Source of the DNA: a virus
DNA: 24,559 nucleotides
Strand: one strand, 5' to 3'
UHGV virus genome: UHGV-0286028
This document shows positions 2,988 through 16,927 of this stretch, one piece after another. A program made the translations under genes and the position numbers. A model generated the notes under the pieces. It was not told the origin of the DNA and did no database searches. It saw only the letters and a list, made by a program, of their open reading frames with translations. Position 1 is the stretch's first letter, and every line of letters starts with the position of its first letter.

Positions 2988-3929
2988 TTACATAGATGTT
3001 TCGTTTAATTCTTCCCGACGAACGCTGTAAACGTCGGTGGCTTTTGCCAGCAGTTCGTCATCATCTGAAAGTTTTTGTGCAATGTATTTGTAAGCCTTAT
3101 CCAGTTCGGAGACAGTGCTGTAATTCATCGCTGCGCTGGTAAAGGCCATCAGCATTTCTTCTGGATCACGGCTATCCGCTTTACGAGTTTGCTCATCAGG
3201 CTTTTTCACTGGTTTAGCGTTGATCAGACTGTTCATTCCCGCAGCAGTGGTCGTTTGCGGAGTAATGTCTCGCTCAACGCGCGGTGCCGTTTCCTGTAAT
3301 TCGTCTGGTGTGTAGACGCCCATGATTACGTCAGGACAGTGCAAGCGAGACCAGCGTTTTGTCGCAAGGTATGCGAGTTGTTGTTTCGGATCACTGGCCC
3401 AAAGTGTGGAGTTTCTTACCTGTGCTTGAGACAGCATTAACTCAAGCACTCGAGGTTGATCCTCGCCCTTCATGGTTGCCCATACGCGAACACCGCAGCC
3501 TTCTTCGTCTTTTAGAGTCCAGCCTGGTGCGATATATGGATTGCCGTTTTTGGATGTTTTCTCAACAAACTTACCGATCACGCGTTCCCACGGCCCGAAC
3601 CACTCGTAGTTGATGCGATCTTTTGTTGGCGACATCGTTGAGATAACTGCGTTTACTAATTGGGCTTCATAACCTAGCGTGCCGTTCACAACATGGGTTT
3701 TCTGAGCCACGGCAAACGGGTTCATTCCCCACTGCGCAGCCTGCATTGCCACGGCCATGCAATCAGCTGGTTTCCCGGCGAGGTGCGCCGGTACCGTTAC
3801 GCGGCTTTGCGCCATTACCTCGGCGAATTTCATCAGTTGGTTCAAGCCGTCTGGGCTGAAAATAGTTGCAGCAGTTCCAGCGATTGCTGTGTCTACTGGT
3901 GCGTTGATGTTTGCGATGTCGTTGCTCAT
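2988..3929 (-). CDS. recT: RecT/Red-beta family single-strand annealing recombinase
   Basis: ATG at 3929 overlaps the exonuclease stop (ATGA); core region (QWGMNPF ... KRWSRLHCPDVIMGVYTPDE) resembles the Bet/RecT fold pattern; immediately downstream of the partner exonuclease. Confidence 0.75.
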   Translation of the reverse strand: MSNDIANINAPVDTAIAGTAATIFSPDGLNQLMKFAEVMAQSRVTVPAHLAGKPADCMAVAMQAAQWGMNPFAVAQKTHVVNGTLGYEAQLVNAVISTMSPTKDRINYEWFGPWERVIGKFVEKTSKNGNPYIAPGWTLKDEEGCGVRVWATMKGEDQPRVLELMLSQAQVRNSTLWASDPKQQLAYLATKRWSRLHCPDVIMGVYTPDELQETAPRVERDITPQTTTAAGMNSLINAKPVKKPDEQTRKADSRDPEEMLMAFTSAAMNYSTVSELDKAYKYIAQKLSDDDELLAKATDVYSVRREELNETSM

Positions 3930-5217: not shown

Positions 5218-5232
5218 TTACCGTTGAGGTAA
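5218..5232. promoter_or_regulatory. Operator palindrome TTACC-GTTGA-GGTAA (leftward-promoter region, site 1)
   Basis: Perfect 5+5 inverted repeat with 5-bp spacer; between the repressor terminator and the leftward operon. Confidence 0.6.
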
Positions 5233-5351: not shown

Positions 5352-5936
5352 TTATTGTTTGTTTTTTTCGTTCTGGTTGATGACAAATTCAATGTAACTT
5401 TCGATCTTTGCCTTCTCTGTTTCAGGTAACAATGCGTAGCGCGAGCGGTCATAGTTGATAGTTGCAGGGTCATGCGGATGAATCAGTAGTTCATATCCGT
5501 GACGCCCGAATGCAGATGCAACATTCTCCAGGGTGGAAATGGAAACGCTGACCTCATTGTTTAACAGGCGGCTTATTGTCACCTGGGCGACGCCGGATGC
5601 GCGGTGAAGTTTTCCCTGAGTTGAAAGGTCGCGGCTTTCACTCATCCAGCGTTCCAGGTTGTGAGCTGCCAGCTGACCAATGTCGCTTGGGCCGACAGGC
5701 TGAAAACCTTCCTGAGAAAGCGAGCGATCGATATCAAGCCAGTTACGGGGTTTATTGGCGGCAGCTTCAATTTTTCGCGCAACCTGGTCGCCGATAACCT
5801 TCTTGCCAAGAGCCCAGCGGTTTACCAGATTTGCCTGAGTTCCAAGTTTTTCTGCCATCCGCGTCTGAACACCATTGAATTCACGGTCGATCAAGTCGTT
5901 GAGATTTTGCCTGCGGACGTCCTGGATACTTTTCAT
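5352..5936 (-). CDS. CI-like immunity repressor with two HTH (Cro/C1-type) domains and no peptidase domain
   Basis: 194 aa; N-terminal HTH pattern (TRMAEKLGTQANLVNRWALGKK) and a second HTH-like segment (GVAQVTISRLLNNEVSVSISTLENVASAFG); divergent from a Cro-like gene across a 154-bp region with three palindromic sites; no S24 Ala-Gly/Ser-Lys motifs seen. Confidence 0.6.
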   Translation of the reverse strand: MKSIQDVRRQNLNDLIDREFNGVQTRMAEKLGTQANLVNRWALGKKVIGDQVARKIEAAANKPRNWLDIDRSLSQEGFQPVGPSDIGQLAAHNLERWMSESRDLSTQGKLHRASGVAQVTISRLLNNEVSVSISTLENVASAFGRHGYELLIHPHDPATINYDRSRYALLPETEKAKIESYIEFVINQNEKNKQ

Positions 5937-5991: not shown

Positions 5992-6054
5992 TTACCCAAC
6001 AGGTAAATGCACCTCATAGGTAACTATCCTTGATTTTTGTTACCTTATGGGTGA
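5992..6054. promoter_or_regulatory. Tripartite operator cluster between repressor and cro-like genes (5992-6006, 6009-6023, 6040-6054)
   Basis: TTACC-CAACA-GGTAA (perfect), GCACC-TCATA-GGTAA (degenerate left half), TTACC-TTATG-GGTGA (one mismatch); spacing 17 and 31 bp, reminiscent of an OR1-3 arrangement. Confidence 0.65.
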
Positions 6055-11420: not shown

Positions 11421-11650
11421 CATGTCACGAAGGTGTTATGCCAAAAATACGCTACGACCTTGAAGATATGAGAGATAACTCAGCAAATTTTCCGAAAGAG
11501 GTTAAATTTCTCATGCATAAGTATGGTTGCGCCAAGAGGGATATAGTTATCGACAGTCAGCACCCTTGCGGCGAGGATGTAATTTTCATTCGCGGTAAAT
11601 GGGAAGGGTATCTTGACGAGAGTTTTTACGATGAATTTGATGGACTTTGA
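11417..11650 (+). CDS. Small hypothetical protein, last gene before the late-operon terminator
   Basis: 77-aa ORF with ATGA-type overlap to the upstream gene. Confidence 0.4.
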   Translation: MTCHEGVMPKIRYDLEDMRDNSANFPKEVKFLMHKYGCAKRDIVIDSQHPCGEDVIFIRGKWEGYLDESFYDEFDGL

Positions 11651-11655
11651 ATACT

Positions 11656-11681
11656 GCCGCCAACTATGGCGGCTTTATTTT
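11656..11681 (+). terminator. Rho-independent terminator between the early/accessory block and the terminase genes
   Basis: Perfect stem GCCGCCA (11656-11662) / TGGCGGC (11667-11673), loop ACTA, then TTTATTTT. Confidence 0.75.
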
Positions 11682-11692
11682 GCATGGTACTA

Positions 11693-11725
11693 TTACCACA
11701 ACGGTAACTATTACCACGGTGGTTA
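11693..11725. promoter_or_regulatory. Twin operator palindromes directly upstream of, and overlapping, the terminase small-subunit start
   Basis: TTACC-ACAAC-GGTAA (11693-11707, perfect) and TTACC-ACGGT-GGTTA (11711-11725, one mismatch); the second ends at the first base of the ATG at 11725. Confidence 0.55.
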
Positions 11726-12321
11726 TGATGCCTGCTGAACCTAAAACCTATAAACGCAAATCAACGCAATTTAAGCCACTAACAGCAATGCAGGAGGCTT
11801 ATTGCCAGTCATACATCAAAACGCCTGAAAACCAGACTCAGGCAGCGATTAACGCAGGATTCTCCCCAAATACAGCGGCAGTTAAAGCCAGTGTCATGAT
11901 GCGCGATGAACGCATTCAAAAACGGATTGCCGAGTTGATGGAGGAGCGCAACAAACGAATGCGCGTCAGTGCTGATTACGTTCTCATGCGCCTGGTGGAG
12001 ATCGACCAGATGGACGTGATCGACATCCTCAACGACGATGGGAGCCTTAAACCAATCCGTGAGTGGCCGAAAATCTGGCGCACTACGCTTAGTGGCTTTG
12101 ATCTGTCATCGACCATCATGAACATGAACGAGGATTCGATAGAGACAATCCTCAAAAAAATTAAATGGCCTGACAAGGTGAAGAACCTCGAACTGATTGG
12201 TAAGCACGTCGACGTCAACGCATTCAAAGAACGCCTGGATGTTAATGTGAATGTGACAATTGCTGATCGCATAGCGGCAGCCAGGAAGAGACTGAAAGAA
12301 CGTCAGGATGGCAATCAGTGA
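11725..12321 (+). CDS. Terminase small subunit
   Basis: ATG at 11725 (MMPAEPKTYKRK...); LTAMQEAYCQSYIKTPENQTQAAINAGFSPNTAAVKASVMMRDERIQKRI matches the small-terminase HTH region; stop overlaps the large-subunit start. The ORF-track start 11647 is a TTG inside the terminator. Confidence 0.7.
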   Translation: MMPAEPKTYKRKSTQFKPLTAMQEAYCQSYIKTPENQTQAAINAGFSPNTAAVKASVMMRDERIQKRIAELMEERNKRMRVSADYVLMRLVEIDQMDVIDILNDDGSLKPIREWPKIWRTTLSGFDLSSTIMNMNEDSIETILKKIKWPDKVKNLELIGKHVDVNAFKERLDVNVNVTIADRIAAARKRLKERQDGNQ

Positions 12322-13793
12322 CAGATACAGCGTTATCTCCTGAAGAGCAGTTAATCGAGGATATTGCAGGGTTCACTCACGATCCGCTTGGCTATGCCCT
12401 CTATGCGTTCCCGTGGGGGGAAGAGGGTACTGAACTGGCATATGCTACCGGCCCACGTCAGTGGCAGGCTGATGCGTTCCGAGAGATACGTGATCACCTG
12501 CAGAATCCAGAGACGCGCTATCAGCCGCTTATGCTGGCACGCGCTTCTGGTCACGGTATTGGTAAATCCGCATTCATCTCAATGCTGATCAACTGGGGCA
12601 TGTCCACTTGCGAGGATTGTAAGGTCGTGGTGACCGCCAACACCGACAACCAGCTACGAACGAAGACCTGGCCGGAAATTATCAAGTGGTCGAACCTTGC
12701 TATCACGAAAGACTGGTTTACCTGTACCGCTACCGCGATGTACAGCAATGACCCTGGGCACGACAAGCGGTGGCGTGCTGACGCAATACCCTGGTCTGAG
12801 CACAACACTGAGGCGTTCGCCGGACTACACAACGAGCGCAAACGCATCATCGTGGTGTTTGATGAAGCGTCGAACATTGCGGATCTGGTGTGGGAAGTTG
12901 CCGAAGGTGCGCTAACGGACGAAGACACTGAGATTATCTGGGTGGCGTTCGGAAACCCGACGCGTAATACCGGACGTTTCCGTGAATGTTTCCGCAAGTA
13001 TAAACACCGCTGGAAAACTGCGCAGATTGACAGTCGGACGGTGGAAGGTACCAACAAACAGCAGTTGCAGAAATGGGTTGATGACTACGGGGAAGACAGC
13101 GACTTCGTTAAAATCCGTGTGCGTGGCATATTCCCTGATGCATCTGAATTGCAGTTTATCCCTACCGGTCTTACTGACGAGGCAATGAAACGGGTGGTAA
13201 CCGCTGCGCAGGTTGCACATGCTCCGGTGATAATCGGCGTTGACCCGGCATACTCCGGCGTTGATGACGCTGTGATATACCTGCGGCAGGGGCTACACAG
13301 TAAGGTGCTGTGGACTGGCAACAAGACTACCGACGATCTGATTATGGCGAAGCGTATCGCTGACTTTGAAGACCAGTATCAGGCTGACGCGGTGTTCATC
13401 GACTTCGGTTACGGAACCGGTTTGAAGTCAATCGGTGACGGCTGGGGTCGTACATGGCAACTTGTTCCGTTCGGTGGCGCGTCTACTGACCCGCAGATGC
13501 TTAACAAGCGTGGGGAGATGTTCAACTCATGCAAGACATGGCTGAGGCTCGGCGGCATGCTGGATGACCGGGAAACAGCGGACGACCTGTCGACGGCAGA
13601 GTACAAAGTTCGCGTGGACGGTAAAATCGTTATCGAACCGAAGGAAGATATCAAAGAGCGACTTGGGCGTTCGCCGGGTAAAGGCGATGCGCTACTGCTG
13701 ACGTTTGCTTTCCCTGTGTCGAAGCGTCTGCGAATTCCTGGGCAGCAGAACCAGCAAGGCAAGGCCATCACAGATTATGACCCGTATGCTTAA
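12318..13793 (+). CDS. Terminase large subunit
   Basis: 491 aa; N-terminal ATPase region with P-loop-like GHGIGKSAF and acidic VVFDEAS (Walker B-like); C-terminal nuclease-like region (IGVDPAYSG ... FIDFGYG); position after the small subunit. Confidence 0.88.
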   Translation: MTDTALSPEEQLIEDIAGFTHDPLGYALYAFPWGEEGTELAYATGPRQWQADAFREIRDHLQNPETRYQPLMLARASGHGIGKSAFISMLINWGMSTCEDCKVVVTANTDNQLRTKTWPEIIKWSNLAITKDWFTCTATAMYSNDPGHDKRWRADAIPWSEHNTEAFAGLHNERKRIIVVFDEASNIADLVWEVAEGALTDEDTEIIWVAFGNPTRNTGRFRECFRKYKHRWKTAQIDSRTVEGTNKQQLQKWVDDYGEDSDFVKIRVRGIFPDASELQFIPTGLTDEAMKRVVTAAQVAHAPVIIGVDPAYSGVDDAVIYLRQGLHSKVLWTGNKTTDDLIMAKRIADFEDQYQADAVFIDFGYGTGLKSIGDGWGRTWQLVPFGGASTDPQMLNKRGEMFNSCKTWLRLGGMLDDRETADDLSTAEYKVRVDGKIVIEPKEDIKERLGRSPGKGDALLLTFAFPVSKRLRIPGQQNQQGKAITDYDPYA

Positions 13794-13841
13794 TCCGCTG
13801 GTGGGGATAATGTCGTTGATATCCTCTGATGAGGATAAAAT

Positions 13842-13872
13842 AAAGCCCGCGCATTTGGCGGGCTTTATTTTT
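13842..13872. terminator. Bidirectional rho-independent terminator after terL
   Basis: AAAGCCCGC / GCGGGCTTT stem with 7-nt loop, flanked by A/T runs on both sides; serves terL (+) and the converging minus-strand gene. Confidence 0.75.
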
Positions 13873-13878
13873 AAATAA

Positions 13879-14226
13879 TTATTTCTTGATAATATTTCCA
13901 GACATTGTGCTGGCGTTTCCACCAACAGTTTCGCAGATTACATCTCCAGACATGGTGTTTACATTTCCCAATACATTGGAACAATGGACATCACCAGACA
14001 TAGTTTTCACATAATGTGCATCACCGCTTACAGTCACTGATCCATTTTCAATCTCAACACCTTCCACGCTTCCATTAATTGTTACGTTAATCTGTCCGTC
14101 AAGATTGCTATTTTTTTCGACACCATCAACGATCACTTTTCCATTGTTAATCGTAATATGATGACCAGTGAAGTCTTCTCCGTTGACGCTAACGCTAGCA
14201 CCACGTACGTTATTGATTTTAATCAT
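13879..14226 (-). CDS. Beta-solenoid repeat protein (bactofilin-like), moron
   Basis: 115 aa; internal repeats (TMSGDV x2, TMSGNI; INVTINGSVEGVEIENGSVTVSGD); GAGGA SD 9 nt upstream of the ATG; flanked by its own terminators; opposite strand to the phage operons. Confidence 0.55.
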   Translation of the reverse strand: MIKINNVRGASVSVNGEDFTGHHITINNGKVIVDGVEKNSNLDGQINVTINGSVEGVEIENGSVTVSGDAHYVKTMSGDVHCSNVLGNVNTMSGDVICETVGGNASTMSGNIIKK

Positions 14227-14334
14227 TATAAATCATCCTCTTTTTGAATCGAGATTAACCTCAGGAGATACTATGACATGTTTTTCATGTATGTCGTAAT
14301 CTGCATCGATATCATAATTGTGACGTATCACGCC

Positions 14335-14359
14335 AAAAAAAATGCCCGGCGAACCGGGC
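14335..14359 (-). terminator. Rho-independent terminator (minus strand) ending the tRNA transcript
   Basis: Stem GCCCGG (14344-14349) / CCGGGC (14354-14359), loop CGAA; A8 run on plus (14335-14342) = U8 on the minus transcript. Confidence 0.7.
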
Positions 14360-14443
14360 GAACTGGAAGCAATGAGTTATGCCTTCCGTGGCTGTACTGG
14401 TTTACAGCATGAAGTCATCGCAATGGCGTCCTGCTGTAAAAAG

Positions 14444-14479
14444 GGCGGTGATGGTTTCCCTTGAAGGACTATCACCGCC
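14444..14479. repeat. Large inverted repeat / stem-loop in the tRNA 3' trailer
   Basis: GGCGGTGAT (14444-14452) and ATCACCGCC (14471-14479), perfect 9-bp arms with an 18-nt spacer that contains a secondary CCTT/AAGG pairing. Confidence 0.5.
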
Positions 14480-14522
14480 AAGCCCCTGGAACTTCTGGCA
14501 TCACGGTCCTTAGGCGTGATTC

Positions 14523-14599
14523 TGGCGTGGCATGCAGGATTCGAACCTGCGACCAACCGCTTAGAAGACGGTTGCTCTGTCCAACTGAGCTAATGCCAC
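14523..14599 (-). tRNA. tRNA-Arg (anticodon UCU), phage-borne, argU-like
   Basis: 77 nt; I folded the reverse complement by hand: acceptor GTGGCAT/ATGCCAC, D-arm GCTC-AGTTGGACA-GAGC, anticodon stem ACCGT/GCGGT with loop CTTCTAA (U33, UCU, A37), T-arm GCAGG-TTCGAAT-CCTGC, discriminator G, encoded CCA. Confidence 0.9.
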
Positions 14600-14880
14600 A
14601 ACGCTGAGAGCACTTAGCCTGTTAAGGCGCCACACTTTGTCGCGGCTCCATAAATGCTCTCATCGTTGTACCCTCGTCTCTTCCGAGGCGTCACACCGAA
14701 TCGCCGGGATGGTGAATCCCCGTGCGCGGAATAAAACCGCTCGACTTGCACATTCCGGCTACCTGGTTCGTTTGCCCGAGCAAGGGAGGGTGCCCCTTAA
14801 ACGTATCCAGACCGCTATCGGCGCATGTGCCATACGCCGTACTGCTCAAAATAAAAGCTCACTCCACCTGTTCAATTTAA
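14600..14880 (-). other. Candidate structured non-coding leader upstream of the tRNA (function unknown)
   Basis: About 280 bp with no credible ORF on either strand (the only ORF, 14637-14900 +, has an R/S/H-rich, non-protein-like composition); several local hairpins (GAGAGCA 14606-14612 / TGCTCTC 14655-14661; CCTCG 14672-14676 / CGAGG 14684-14688). Confidence 0.3.
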
Positions 14881-14921
14881 CGACAAGCCAGTCAGGTTAA
14901 TAACCGGAATGAACCATTTGC

Positions 14922-14936
14922 TTACCTGAAAGGTAA
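14922..14936. promoter_or_regulatory. Operator palindrome TTACC-TGAAA-GGTAA upstream of the structural operon
   Basis: Perfect inverted repeat between the tRNA-leader region and the first structural gene. Confidence 0.6.
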
Positions 14937-15026
14937 TAATTCGTGCGTTAAATGTCAACTATCTACGATAAATAAATCATATGTGGTTAAATTGGTAATA
15001 ATTTAATTGCGTACGGAGTCATTGAT

Positions 15027-15233
15027 ATGTGCATGGGTAGCTCACCATCAGTGCCTGCAACACCAGAAGTTCAGGCAGCACCACAGGAGCAGGATGCCGC
15101 CGTTGTTGATGCCCGCGACGAAGAAACTCGTCGCCGTCGCGCTGCTGCTGGTCGTAGTTCTACGCTGCTTACCGGTTCTCAGGGCGACACATCAACCGCT
15201 AATACCAGCGGTAAAACGCTGCTTGGTCAGTAA
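15027..15233 (+). CDS. Small low-complexity virion-associated protein (T7 gp7.3-like position and composition)
   Basis: 68 aa; GGAG SD 8 nt upstream; Ala/Gln/Arg/Ser-rich; sits immediately before the portal gene, as gene 7.3 does in T7. Chosen over the overlapping 15007-15246 ORF. Confidence 0.4.
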   Translation: MCMGSSPSVPATPEVQAAPQEQDAAVVDARDEETRRRRAAAGRSSTLLTGSQGDTSTANTSGKTLLGQ

Positions 15234-15247
15234 CCGGAGTCATTGAA

Positions 15248-16927
15248 ATGGCGGAAACAACTAAAGAGCGATTGAACAAACAGTTCGCACAACTTGAAAG
15301 CGAGCGTCAGTCGTTCGAGCCGCACTGGCGCGAGTTGAGTGATTACATCAACCCGCGTGGTTCCCGCTTTCTGACTTCTGAGGTCAACCGTAACGATCGA
15401 CGCAATACACGCATTATTGATTCGACCGGGACTATGGCGGCGCGCACTCTCGCCAGCGGCATGATGTCAGGCATCACAAGCCCCGCGCGTCCGTGGTTTC
15501 GCCTGGCTACGCCAGATCCTGAAATGATGGATTATGGCCCTGTTAAGTTGTGGCTTGAGGCGGTGCAGAACCGCATGAACGATATGTTCAATAAGTCGAA
15601 TCTCTATCAGTCGCTGCCGCAGTTATACGGAAGCCTCGGCACATACAGCACTGCCGCAATGGCGGTGCTGGAGGATGACGAGGACATCATTCGTACAATG
15701 CCATTCCCGATAGGAAGTTACTACCTGGCTAACTCACCTCGTGGCAGTGTGGACACCTGTTTTCGCAAGTTCTCTATGACTGTTCGTCAGCTTGTTCAGG
15801 AGTTCGGACTAAATAACGTCAGCGAATCCGTAAAAAGCATGTGGGAAAGCGGCACCTACGAGAAGTGGATTGAAGTGATGCATTCGGTTTACCCGAACAT
15901 TGACCGCGATACATCGAAGCTGGATAGCAAGAACAAGCCATTCAAATCGGTTTATTACGAGGTTGGTGGCGATAACGACAAGTTGTTGCGTGAGTCCGGA
16001 TTCGATGAGTTTCCAATTATGGCTCCGCGCTGGGAAGTTAACGGCGAAGATGTTTATGGATCATCATGCCCGGGTATGCTGGCGCTTGGACCTGTTAAGG
16101 CATTGCAGCTTCTCCAGAAGCGCAAGTCGCAGTTGATTGATAAAGCCACCAATCCGCCGATGGTTGCTCCGACTTCCCTCAAGAATCAGCGCGCCTCCCT
16201 TCTTCCTGGCGACATCACGTATATCGATCAGATTACTGGTCAGGATGGTTTCAGGCCTGCTTATCTGGTTAACCCCAGTACAGCAGATTTGGTGGCAGAC
16301 ATTCAGGACACTCGTCAAATCATTAACAGCGCCTACTTTGTCGATCTGTTCATGATGTTGCAGAACATCAATACCCGCTCGATGCCTGTTGAAGCAGTGA
16401 TCGAAATGAAAGAAGAAAAACTTCTGATGTTGGGGCCGGTTCTGGAGCGTCTGAACGACGAATGTCTTAATCCTCTCATTGACCGCGCTTTCTCGATGAT
16501 GGTGCGTAAAAACATGCTGCCGCCACCGCCTGACGCGATGGAAGGTATGCCCCTGAAGGTCGAATACATTTCCGTCATGGCTCAGGCGCAGAAGTCTATC
16601 GGCCTGTCCAGTCTGGCGTCTACGGTCAACTTCATTGGTCAACTTGCGCAAGCGAAACCAGAAGCTCTCGACAAACTCAACGTTGATCAGGCGATCGATG
16701 CATTCGCTGATATGTCCGGAGTGTCTCCAACCGTCATTGTTCCGCAGGAACAGGTTGAGCAGGCTCGCCAGCAACGGGCACAGCAACAACAGCAGCAACA
16801 AATGATGGCGATGGGGATGGCGGCGGCACAGGGGGCCAAGACGCTAAGCGAAGCTAAAACTTCGGATCCGAGTGTGTTGTCAGCTATGGCGAATGCAGTT
16901 AGTGGTCAGGGTGGGCAATCACAATGA
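15248..16927 (+). CDS. Portal (head-to-tail connector) protein, T7 gp8-like
   Basis: 559 aa, first large gene after the terminase; Gln/Ala/Met-rich C-terminal tail (QQQQQQMMAMGMAAAQG) resembling podovirus connector C-termini; GGAG SD. Confidence 0.78.
   Translation: MAETTKERLNKQFAQLESERQSFEPHWRELSDYINPRGSRFLTSEVNRNDRRNTRIIDSTGTMAARTLASGMMSGITSPARPWFRLATPDPEMMDYGPVKLWLEAVQNRMNDMFNKSNLYQSLPQLYGSLGTYSTAAMAVLEDDEDIIRTMPFPIGSYYLANSPRGSVDTCFRKFSMTVRQLVQEFGLNNVSESVKSMWESGTYEKWIEVMHSVYPNIDRDTSKLDSKNKPFKSVYYEVGGDNDKLLRESGFDEFPIMAPRWEVNGEDVYGSSCPGMLALGPVKALQLLQKRKSQLIDKATNPPMVAPTSLKNQRASLLPGDITYIDQITGQDGFRPAYLVNPSTADLVADIQDTRQIINSAYFVDLFMMLQNINTRSMPVEAVIEMKEEKLLMLGPVLERLNDECLNPLIDRAFSMMVRKNMLPPPPDAMEGMPLKVEYISVMAQAQKSIGLSSLASTVNFIGQLAQAKPEALDKLNVDQAIDAFADMSGVSPTVIVPQEQVEQARQQRAQQQQQQQMMAMGMAAAQGAKTLSEAKTSDPSVLSAMANAVSGQGGQSQ

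Follow-up and report, generated by a model that had tools for sequence, protein, structure and literature searches.

We analysed a stretch of 24,559 nucleotides (nt) from a virus, UHGV virus genome UHGV-0286028 (the window), and within it the minus-strand block lying between the terminase gene terL and a 68-amino-acid (aa) open reading frame (ORF). The leader of this block holds a structured RNA of 169 nt, here called the core (module A), which is followed by a tRNA-Arg gene, several trailer hairpins and a small cargo gene (Table 1). The core is a real structured RNA and not a coding sequence, and the RNA family that it represents is absent from Rfam 15; phage tRNA-Arg(UCU) genes and accessory-gene slots are ordinary. 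A sequence-only reading of the window had left the leader as anonymous non-coding sequence, but it carries strong covariation and is the most notable part of the block. We favour, with a probability of roughly 45%, the reading that the core is part of a processed, stable, trans-acting early phage RNA that would be made from an operator-controlled operon with a swappable accessory gene behind it.

The structure and covariation of the core were read from an alignment (A3) of 27 representatives. It contains the helices P1, P2/P2a, P3, a variable P4, P5 and P6 together with a pseudoknot. P1 is a 9-base-pair (bp) hairpin with a GCA loop, P2/P2a surrounds a variable insert, and P3 closes a domain containing the variable hairpin P4 and the hairpin P5, whose loop sequence CACC pairs with a downstream GGUG to form the pseudoknot. 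A C:G pair of this pseudoknot is replaced by A:U in three of the 27 representatives. The P6 loop GAAGAGA is invariant, as is the junction GGUAGCCGGAAUGUGCAAG among the representatives, part of the latter invariance reflecting the 16-mer used in collecting the sequences. We found 91.5% of the cells in the alignment to be paired, as against 29-46% in slid controls, and sixteen of the 35 base pairs show changes on both sides; none of 500 shuffles matched the observed values. More than 60 core nucleotides are invariant across unrelated phages. The leader as a whole folds better than shuffled sequence (z = -2.6), and so does the trailer (z = -3.4).

A covariance model (R1) built from 27 diverse homologues matches the window over its full length with 140 bits (E = 1.8e-38), partly by construction as the near-identical Escherichia phage TL-2011b is in the seed. 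The same model scores the P1 locus at 135 bits, with a P1-like plasmid sequence (L004) also in the seed. When the block was compared to Rfam 15 at the gathering threshold, only the tRNA passed and no family was found for the leader, and at E <= 10 there was no match within 14600-14900. Below the threshold, Rfam models matched terminator look-alikes (13800-13940, 14335-14412) and, in antisense, the tRNA. A protein-coding leader was rejected on account of indels of 3 and 4 nt, of compensatory base pairs and of the length of the core, which ranges over 143-175 nt but not in steps of three. Hypothetical coding sequences have been annotated in public genomes on the opposite strand over the tRNA, trailer or core, namely the equivalent of TL-2011b gp24 (14342-14593), phiV10 p04 (L002 2672-2923) and mEp460 gp37 (L003 2934-3302), and all three are probably spurious. 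No description of the core was found in the literature covered on phiV10, P1, prophage leader RNAs and follow-ups of sRNA-17 (see below), a scope that left out many subscription papers including the P1 genome paper.

Homologues of the core were found in 1840 of 5426 complete Escherichia coli genomes. A total of 554 of the places in E. coli are on plasmids, and those inspected are about 90-105 kb in size. The core is present in P1, P7, D6 and SJ46, in Stx2a and Stx2c phages, in cdtI and mEp460, and in the epsilon15-like podoviruses of the genus Uetakevirus. The window segment 14596-14840 (minus strand) has about 83% identity to unannotated DNA of the lambdoid phages mEp460, cdtI and 2H10, and its first 165 nt about 80% identity to P1, P7, D6 and SJ46. 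IMG/VR contributed 120 loci, which reduce to 106 distinct sequences and to 43 clusters at 90% identity. Six further Enterobacteriaceae genomes with true matches (Kosakonia, Phytobacter, Superficieibacter and Escherichia whittamii) were recovered by nhmmer, the 16-base degenerate pattern run over the genome collection having given mostly chance matches. The core is so far known from the Enterobacteriaceae and their phages, with the exception of a weak partial match in two Stenotrophomonas phage records.

The RNA keeps a constant strand with respect to its neighbouring genes, and any tRNA present is always on its strand. A tRNA-Arg(tct) gene lies directly 3' of the RNA in 27 loci and a tRNA-Ile2(cat) gene 14 nt 5' of it in seventeen, so that one or the other directly adjoins the RNA in one third of the loci. 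Three types of context were observed. In Uetakeviruses, the core is located directly 5' of tRNA-Arg. In P1, it lies 14 nt past trnI and about 100 nt ahead of ban, within the ban operon, which is under C1 control and includes a dicF-like region (by annotation) and two more tRNAs as well. In lambdoid phages, Stx phages included, it lies in the PL leader; the order is cI, a terminator, a near-consensus operator-bearing PL and then the RNA, as in the prophage of the O26 strain 11368 (L005), where PL reads TTGACA-16-CATAAT and is overlapped by a palindrome that recurs in the cI/cro intergenic region. The lambdoid core begins about 45-50 nt past the inferred transcription start, and the early-left genes after the RNA include yfdP/Q/R, ParB-like, RdgC and others. 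Of the first early-left ORFs that were scanned in the lambdoid loci, none is N-like. Strong promoters within 300 nt upstream were found in the sense orientation in 20 of 105 unique loci, compared to one in the antisense orientation.

Module B, a long hairpin, follows the core in most loci other than those of P1 type and can be duplicated. Its helix is supported by the compensatory variants GAGAGCA/UGCUCUC, GAGCGCA/UGCGCUC and AAGAGCA/UGCUCUU; the claim is made on these variants because an ungapped count, which gives only 74% paired, is diluted by internal loops and bulges that vary between the variants. The hairpins of its variable tip carry a canonical tRNA T-arm sequence (GGTTCGATTCC) in five loci (L009, L097, L157, L101 and L074). 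Only loose matches to boxA were found in module B, where a 13-mer consensus allowing up to three mismatches occurs in seven sense and 29 antisense regions, and the candidate was rejected. One lambdoid locus (L086) has a perfect 13-nt rrn-type boxA, TGCTCTTTAACAA, located 38 nt past the core after a small hairpin, a feature that is not general in the family. In four loci (L023, L086, L119 and L043) genes on the opposite strand follow the core in place of modules B-D, and the lambdoid L023 has two matches to the core profile.

The tRNA-Arg claimed by the sequence-only reading was recovered with the anticodon UCU. It reads AGA, a codon used about 2 times per 1000 in E. coli and 5.3 times per 1000 in the genes of the window. 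In other loci a tRNA-like domain, GUGGUGAAUGCGCAGGCUGAUGCGC ... GCCGGAGAUCAGCACCGGCCACCACAAC, replaces the tRNA-Arg. Downstream of it come hairpin D and the terminator-like hairpin E, the latter being found in 80 of the 135 family matches, lambdoid ones included. Hairpin E is laid out as UUGGCGGU, five covarying stem pairs, a loop, ACCGCC and then CUUUUUACA, and it contains the trailer hairpin with 9-bp arms that had been noticed from the sequence, which is thereby found to be both conserved and covarying. The view that E is merely a structural internal loop was rejected, as the flanking GCUGUGU/ACACAGC pairing exists in some types only and the 3' end of sRNA-17 lies there. The P1 version of the unit consists of the core only, whereas the Uetakevirus version adds two more hairpins and the strong intrinsic terminator T after E. 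The 5' arm of the first of these hairpins (14404-14437) shares three bases with the U-tract of E, and T closes the untranslated unit in 35 non-identical related loci.

Transcription of a lambdoid homologue has been reported. E. coli K1 RS218 makes a small RNA of 193 nt, sRNA-17, whose ends were mapped by rapid amplification of cDNA ends and which was positive by Northern blot in the lysogen; its 5' end was attributed to an ArcA-regulated promoter, and the core and module B upstream of it went unreported (PMC7719688). We placed sRNA-17 on mEp460 (L003, reverse strand, sense-oriented 3237-3430), where it runs from GUUGUGGUGAAUGCGC, the first base past module B, to the U-tract of E. It starts at GUUGUGG, the 3' boundary of module B, which is where the window has the 5' end of the tRNA (window equivalent 14435-14599). 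The flanks given in the paper, 392 nt upstream and 567 nt downstream, match the approximately 393 nt measured from the cI stop to the sRNA and the 567 nt from E to the yfdQ-like gene, and the strand of sRNA-17 is therefore the sense strand used here (PMC7719688). By alignment, then, sRNA-17 corresponds to the tRNA-like domain plus hairpin E of the lambdoid unit, and its reported promoter region to the conserved core RNA. Since no conserved promoter motif was seen on reading the module B variants, we take its 5' end to be a processing site. Sense transcription, the 3' end at E and the 5' end at the boundary of B and the tRNA-like domain are thus literature results for the lambdoid homologue (PMC7719688). 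The unit in the window is of the same modular kind, of which mEp460 represents the lambdoid version, with the same strand and a homologous hairpin E. Unlike the window unit, sRNA-17 lacks the core and module B and has a tRNA-like body where the window has a genuine tRNA-Arg. Only hairpin E is common to the two in sequence; a BLAST search with the trailer does not reach the lambdoid loci, and their positions in the unit are equivalent.

The putative sigma-70-type promoter of the window unit was missed by a consensus promoter scan because its -10 is weak. The arrangement TTGRCN-17-TACCTT-N2-4-GGTAA is present upstream of the RNA in 38 of the 135 family matches, among them all Uetakevirus-type loci inspected. 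The palindrome overlapping its -10, already seen in the sequence-only reading, was found to be one of eleven TTACC-N5-GGTAA sites in the window against 0.46 expected, a number that none of 100 shuffles reached. A repressor-like gene of the HTH_3 family (5352-5936, 194 aa) is flanked by pairs of these sites. To its left are the stop, a terminator (5331-5312) and a PL-like promoter flanked by the sites at 5218 and 5280, and to its right the site at 6040 lies inside a PR-like promoter. The PL-like promoter and the RNA-unit promoter have the string ATTATTACC..GGTAA in common. The scattered operator set recalls the C1 operators of P1. A further pair of sites is located upstream of a DUF1064 gene, and two more occur within the start of terS.

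As the operator is shared with the repressor region, we infer that the unit is repressed in the lysogen and switched on early after derepression, so that it is probably under prophage repressor control and early-lytic rather than lysogen-specific. The homologous RNA in lambdoid phages and P1 is likewise found behind repressor-controlled early promoters. Lysogen-specific expression therefore appears unlikely, the promoter of the unit being overlapped by the operator found on either side of the repressor gene. Our analysis does support the earlier proposal that the block between terL and the portal operon is transcribed as a unit of its own from the minus strand, and every feature on which the proposal was built lies where it had been placed or within a few bases, including the U8 terminator, the 115-aa gene with its own ribosome-binding site (RBS) and the bidirectional terminator of about -21 kcal/mol on either strand. 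The unit is indeed untranslated, but its length comes to about 590 nt, from the inferred start to 14335, and not about 540 nt.

The cargo gene encodes a 115-aa protein, for which a right-handed beta-helix architecture is predicted, in agreement with a beta-solenoid protein in the general sense. We found 1096 homologues of about 110-120 aa in diverse bacteria. Searches of Pfam (E <= 0.1), PADLOC, sequences in the PDB and Foldseek gave no assignment, and membership of the bactofilin or DUF4097-type families was rejected as there was neither a Pfam family at E <= 0.1 nor a PDB sequence match. The gene has its own terminator, for which the annotation of phiV10 shows a terminator at the equivalent place, and no consensus promoter was found in the 108-nt spacer before it.

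Comparison with related prophages, which had been proposed as a check of the sequence-only reading, showed that the ORF slot varies and that the leader-tRNA-trailer unit does not. The region 13700-15100 is 97.7% identical to TL-2011b, and its flanks match phiV10 and other Uetakeviruses. In phiV10 and most relatives only the ORF stretch (about 13840-14335) is replaced, while 14336-15100 is about 96% conserved in E. coli phages and can in part be aligned, at about 75-87%, with phages of Salmonella and Klebsiella. The 115-aa ORF occurs at this junction only in TL-2011b-like genomes, with different genes or none in phiV10 and others. By this comparison the 115-aa ORF alone is a variable accessory cassette, and the leader-tRNA-trailer block is a standing feature of Uetakeviruses. 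The proposal of an inserted accessory cassette thus holds for the 115-aa ORF and fails for the rest of the block, which is kept across the Uetakeviruses of E. coli, Salmonella, Klebsiella and Enterobacter. A homologue with 61% identity to the 115-aa protein is encoded on the structural-gene strand of a podovirus-like prophage of Enterobacter hormaechei (L250 3501-3848), between a 280-aa ORF with no Pfam match and the major capsid gene. This different position confirms the mobility of the 115-aa gene.

The slot proteins of related phages belong to at least ten unrelated families, including Phage_gp49_66, a Tad2-like protein (Thoeris anti-defence) and several PHROGs. The usual junction of the slot is U7-AAGGTGAGATT-ATG with a spacer of 11-16 nt in most related loci, and in 30 of 35 loci the first ORF of at least 50 aa begins 25 nt or less past the U-run of T, which therefore leaves no room for a promoter. 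The terminator-to-ORF gap of 108 nt is unusual and was seen in the window and TL-2011b. The island had been described as insulated, and this is true of the window with its long gap but not of these 30 loci. Two loci, L065 and L101, have the unit but no cargo gene, L065 retaining the RBS and a remnant of eight codons. A Tad2-like gene (PF11195) occupies the Uetakevirus slot of L080, L091 and L102 and is also the first gene after the RNA in the P1-like L040. Two phage backbones that are unrelated to each other thus have Tad2-like genes directly downstream, and counter-defence genes may gather in the slot.

On the reading that we favour, the repressor would leave the operator on induction or infection, and the putative sigma-70 promoter would drive an untranslated transcript of about 590 nt containing the core, module B, tRNA-Arg(UCU), three more hairpins (one of them E) and T. 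Enzymes of tRNA processing would then cut this precursor, with RNase P at the 5' end of the tRNA setting the 3' end of a core-plus-B RNA, and so release the mature tRNA for AGA together with a structured RNA that would be stable and about 250-320 nt long. The core-containing RNA would act in trans on a conserved host component, and the cargo genes would be expressed through residual read-through of E and T or from promoters of their own. That the RNAs themselves are the product is suggested by the unit ending in E and then T and by the phages in which no cargo gene follows, and a conserved host partner by the presence of the invariant positions in three unrelated phage lineages. The position of the core among other RNA genes in P1 also favours this reading, as does the lambdoid RNA ending at E although the precursor of sRNA-17 appears to carry the core. 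Several points weigh on the other side. The putative -10 (TACCTT) is weak, the link between the repressor and the palindrome is drawn from operator sharing, and the host target or partner of the core is putative. In addition, sRNA-17 was detected in an uninduced lysogen, so that the lambdoid unit is not fully silent there (PMC7719688). Most of the phage RNAs so far described as acting in trans are small and base-pairing, unlike a pseudoknotted domain of 170 nt. Finally, the lambdoid RNA sits exactly at the nutL/putL position with genes downstream, which a role in cis would fit equally well.

Such a role is the main competing explanation, namely a cis-acting antitermination or anti-polarity leader that would be a functional analogue of HK022 put or lambda nut; we consider it possible but doubtful. 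Antiterminators of the put type suppress termination in a way that depends on the beta' zinc-binding domain of RNA polymerase. The nascent core would bind the transcribing RNA polymerase or recruit Nus factors, and early transcription would then pass E, T, Rho-dependent sites in the long untranslated stretch and later terminators, and so extend into the cargo gene or, in the lambdoid case, into the early-left operon. The HK022 put RNAs are about 70 nt with two stem-loops, and putL is in the early-left leader position (PMC9378689). Like HK022 putL/putR and the putL-like RNA of HK639, the lambdoid core comes just downstream of a repressor-controlled PL, is followed by a terminator-like hairpin and has no N-like gene that we could find among the first early-left genes; its distance of about 45-50 nt from the start at the operator-bearing PL places it where HK022 has putL (PMC9378689). 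A mechanism by RNA alone is conceivable for it. The order is that of a put-type RNA in both settings, with PL, RNA, E and early-left genes in lambdoid phages, where E thus separates the RNA from the genes that it would serve, and with promoter, RNA, E, T and cargo in the window. Moreover, the cargo in 30 of the 35 Uetakevirus-type loci must be transcribed through two terminators, the more than 60 invariant nucleotides across unrelated phages would fit a conserved host machine, and the perfect boxA of L086 would suit such a leader, although boxA is not general in the family. In contrast to put, however, the core has 143-175 nt, two to three times its size, folds into five to six helices with a pseudoknot, and is also found in P1 and podoviruses and beside tRNAs. 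Homology to put was rejected, as R1 does not match the HK639 genome with its annotated putL-like RNA, and the strings CAUGCGUCG and GGAAGAG picked out by eye are not significant. The end of sRNA-17 at E further indicates that the core does not abolish termination there under those conditions, the P1-type copies are 2.4 kb from the promoter with no terminator seen in the sequence before ban or the Tad2-like gene, and units without any downstream gene exist (L065, L101).

Two further explanations seem improbable to about the same degree. The core could belong to a riboswitch-like or attenuator-like leader that senses a small molecule, an ion or a tRNA and sets termination at E, tuning the early genes to the state of the host. 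The conservation is aptamer-like, with invariant junctions, covarying stems and a pseudoknot, the core is promoter-proximal in two of the three contexts, and a conserved terminator-like hairpin lies downstream. Yet 200-450 nt of variable modules, including a whole tRNA, separate the core from E, the P1 copies lack both E and any expression platform next to them, and no riboswitch in Rfam was matched. A specifier of the T-box kind, for which AGA of the P6 loop and ACCA of the P5 loop were the candidates, was rejected because the loops, including GAAGAGA of P6, are constant whether the neighbour is tRNA-Arg, tRNA-Ile2 or no tRNA. The model of the sequence-only reading, in which a lysogen-expressed moron island stands at the terL/portal junction and the leader is a functionless 5' untranslated region and tRNA precursor flank, draws on the variable, terminator-bounded ORF slot, on the lysogen expression of the lambdoid homologue shown to some extent by sRNA-17 (PMC7719688) and on the occurrence of the 115-aa gene at a different position in another prophage. 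It is difficult to reconcile with a leader whose structure is strongly selected and whose distribution goes far beyond that of the island, with an RNA-tRNA unit that is conserved and not variable, and with a promoter that carries the immunity operator. For lambdoid phages, morons are defined in the sense of Hendrix and Juhala. The 115-aa gene resembles them in being extra and variable between conserved genes and bounded by terminators, but differs in that in most related phages a separate promoter would not fit in front of the cargo gene, and in that the upstream unit is operator-controlled.

Other known phage RNAs share single traits with the core. The C4 RNA of P1 and P7, the CI RNA of P4 and DicF are excised from early operons by RNase P or by RNase E/III. 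Like them, the core belongs to operons under repressor control, in the company of tRNAs and a dicF-like region, and ends at tRNA or tRNA-like boundaries, but it is far larger and more intricately folded, has no evident antisense target and does not match the C4 or DicF models. GOLLD and ROOL, which the core calls to mind, are large structured RNAs adjacent to phage tRNA genes; the core is likewise a structured non-coding RNA beside tRNA genes in phage genomes, but it is much smaller and has no Rfam match to either.

Taken together, a strongly conserved and intricately folded RNA appears to have gone unreported in P1, in Shiga-toxin (Stx) phages and in about one third of sequenced E. coli. Because three phage lineages that are unrelated to one another have it in early operons under repressor control, it probably answers to a host constraint that they all face, for which transcription termination, RNA processing, rare-codon translation and defence are candidates. 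A role in trans would make the core a new phage RNA directed at the host. Should it prove to be an antiterminator, the problem solved by lambda N and HK022 put would have been solved by RNA a second time and independently, with a bearing on early gene expression in Stx prophages. We would also venture, as a speculation that is more likely wrong than right, that the core is the first of a new functional RNA class, which would either modify host RNA polymerase by RNA alone and without relation to put or serve as a decoy or sponge of a conserved host machine that handles RNA, and which P1, Stx and other lambdoid phages and epsilon15-like phages would deploy with tRNA-type processing in the first minutes of lytic growth. 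The virulence-linked sRNA-17 of E. coli K1 may in turn be re-read as a fragment processed from a larger RNA unit of the phage, and the slot with its small accessory genes, Tad2-like ones included, is a practical place to seek new counter-defence genes.

Table 1. Annotated features of the minus-strand block and its surroundings in the window.
Feature	Position	Strand	Remarks
Putative sigma-70-type promoter	14930-14958	-	-35 TTGACA (14958-14953), 17-nt spacer, weak -10 TACCTT (14935-14930); inferred start about 14923
Putative operator palindrome TTACCTGAAAGGTAA	14922-14936	none	TTACC-N5-GGTAA family; overlaps the -10 of the RNA-unit promoter
TTACC-N5-GGTAA sites	136, 5218, 5280, 5992, 6040, 6377, 8273, 8335, 11693, 11711, 14922		
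5' leader, degenerate copy of the module B hairpin	14841-14921	-	..GUCGUUAAAU..GGAGUGAGCUUUUAUUUUGAG; aligns with intact copies upstream of the core in L022, L026, L080 and L041
Core RNA (module A), 169 nt	14672-14840	-	
Module B, long hairpin	14596-14671	-	ACAACGAUGAGAGCA..variable tip..UGCUCUCAGCGUUGU, ends GUUGUGG; 3' end overlaps the 5' end of the tRNA by 4 nt
tRNA-Arg, anticodon UCU (TCT)	14523-14599	-	CCA encoded; ARAGORN; Rfam RF00005, 71 bits against a gathering threshold of 29
Hairpin D	14500-14521	-	AAUCACGCCUAAGGACCGUGAU; 92-96% conserved in Uetakevirus-type loci with or without tRNA
Hairpin E, terminator-like	14435-14481	-	UUGGCGGUGAU..AUCACCGCC then CUUUUUACA; 9-bp arms GGCGGTGAT/ATCACCGCC at 14444-14479
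Hairpin	14404-14437	-	ACAGCAGG..CAUGCUGU; predicted fold; conserved in Uetakevirus-type trailers
Hairpin	14365-14387	-	GGAAGGCAU..AUUGCUUCC; predicted fold; conserved in trailers
Strong intrinsic terminator T	14335-14359	-	GCCCGGTTCGCCGGGC (GCCCGG-UUCG-CCGGGC), then A and U8
Spacer, 108 nt	14227-14334	-	RBS AAGAGGA; possible TG-extended -10 TGTCATAGT by eye; found with this type of cargo only
Cargo gene, 115-aa predicted beta-helix protein	13879-14226	-	phrog_3163; RBS AAGAGGA
Bidirectional terminator	13837-13872	none	Ends both the cargo gene and the terS-terL operon convergent with it; folds at -21.2 and -20.7 kcal/mol, one value per strand
terS	11647-12321	+	
terL	12318-13793	+	
68-aa ORF	15027-15233	+	Opens the structural operon
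Portal gene	15248-16927	+	

Two minor observations concern the surroundings of the RNA. In two of the RNA-carrying lambdoid prophages, C4 antisense RNA and isrK were matched above the Rfam threshold in an annotated Rha-family/antirepressor gene region (L005 1277-1465 and L003 5351-5539), an arrangement that resembles the immI module of P1. The 68-aa ORF belongs to phrog_831 and has a lipoprotein-like look with the N-terminus MCMGSS, and it is kept beside the divergent promoter region in all Uetakevirus-type loci.

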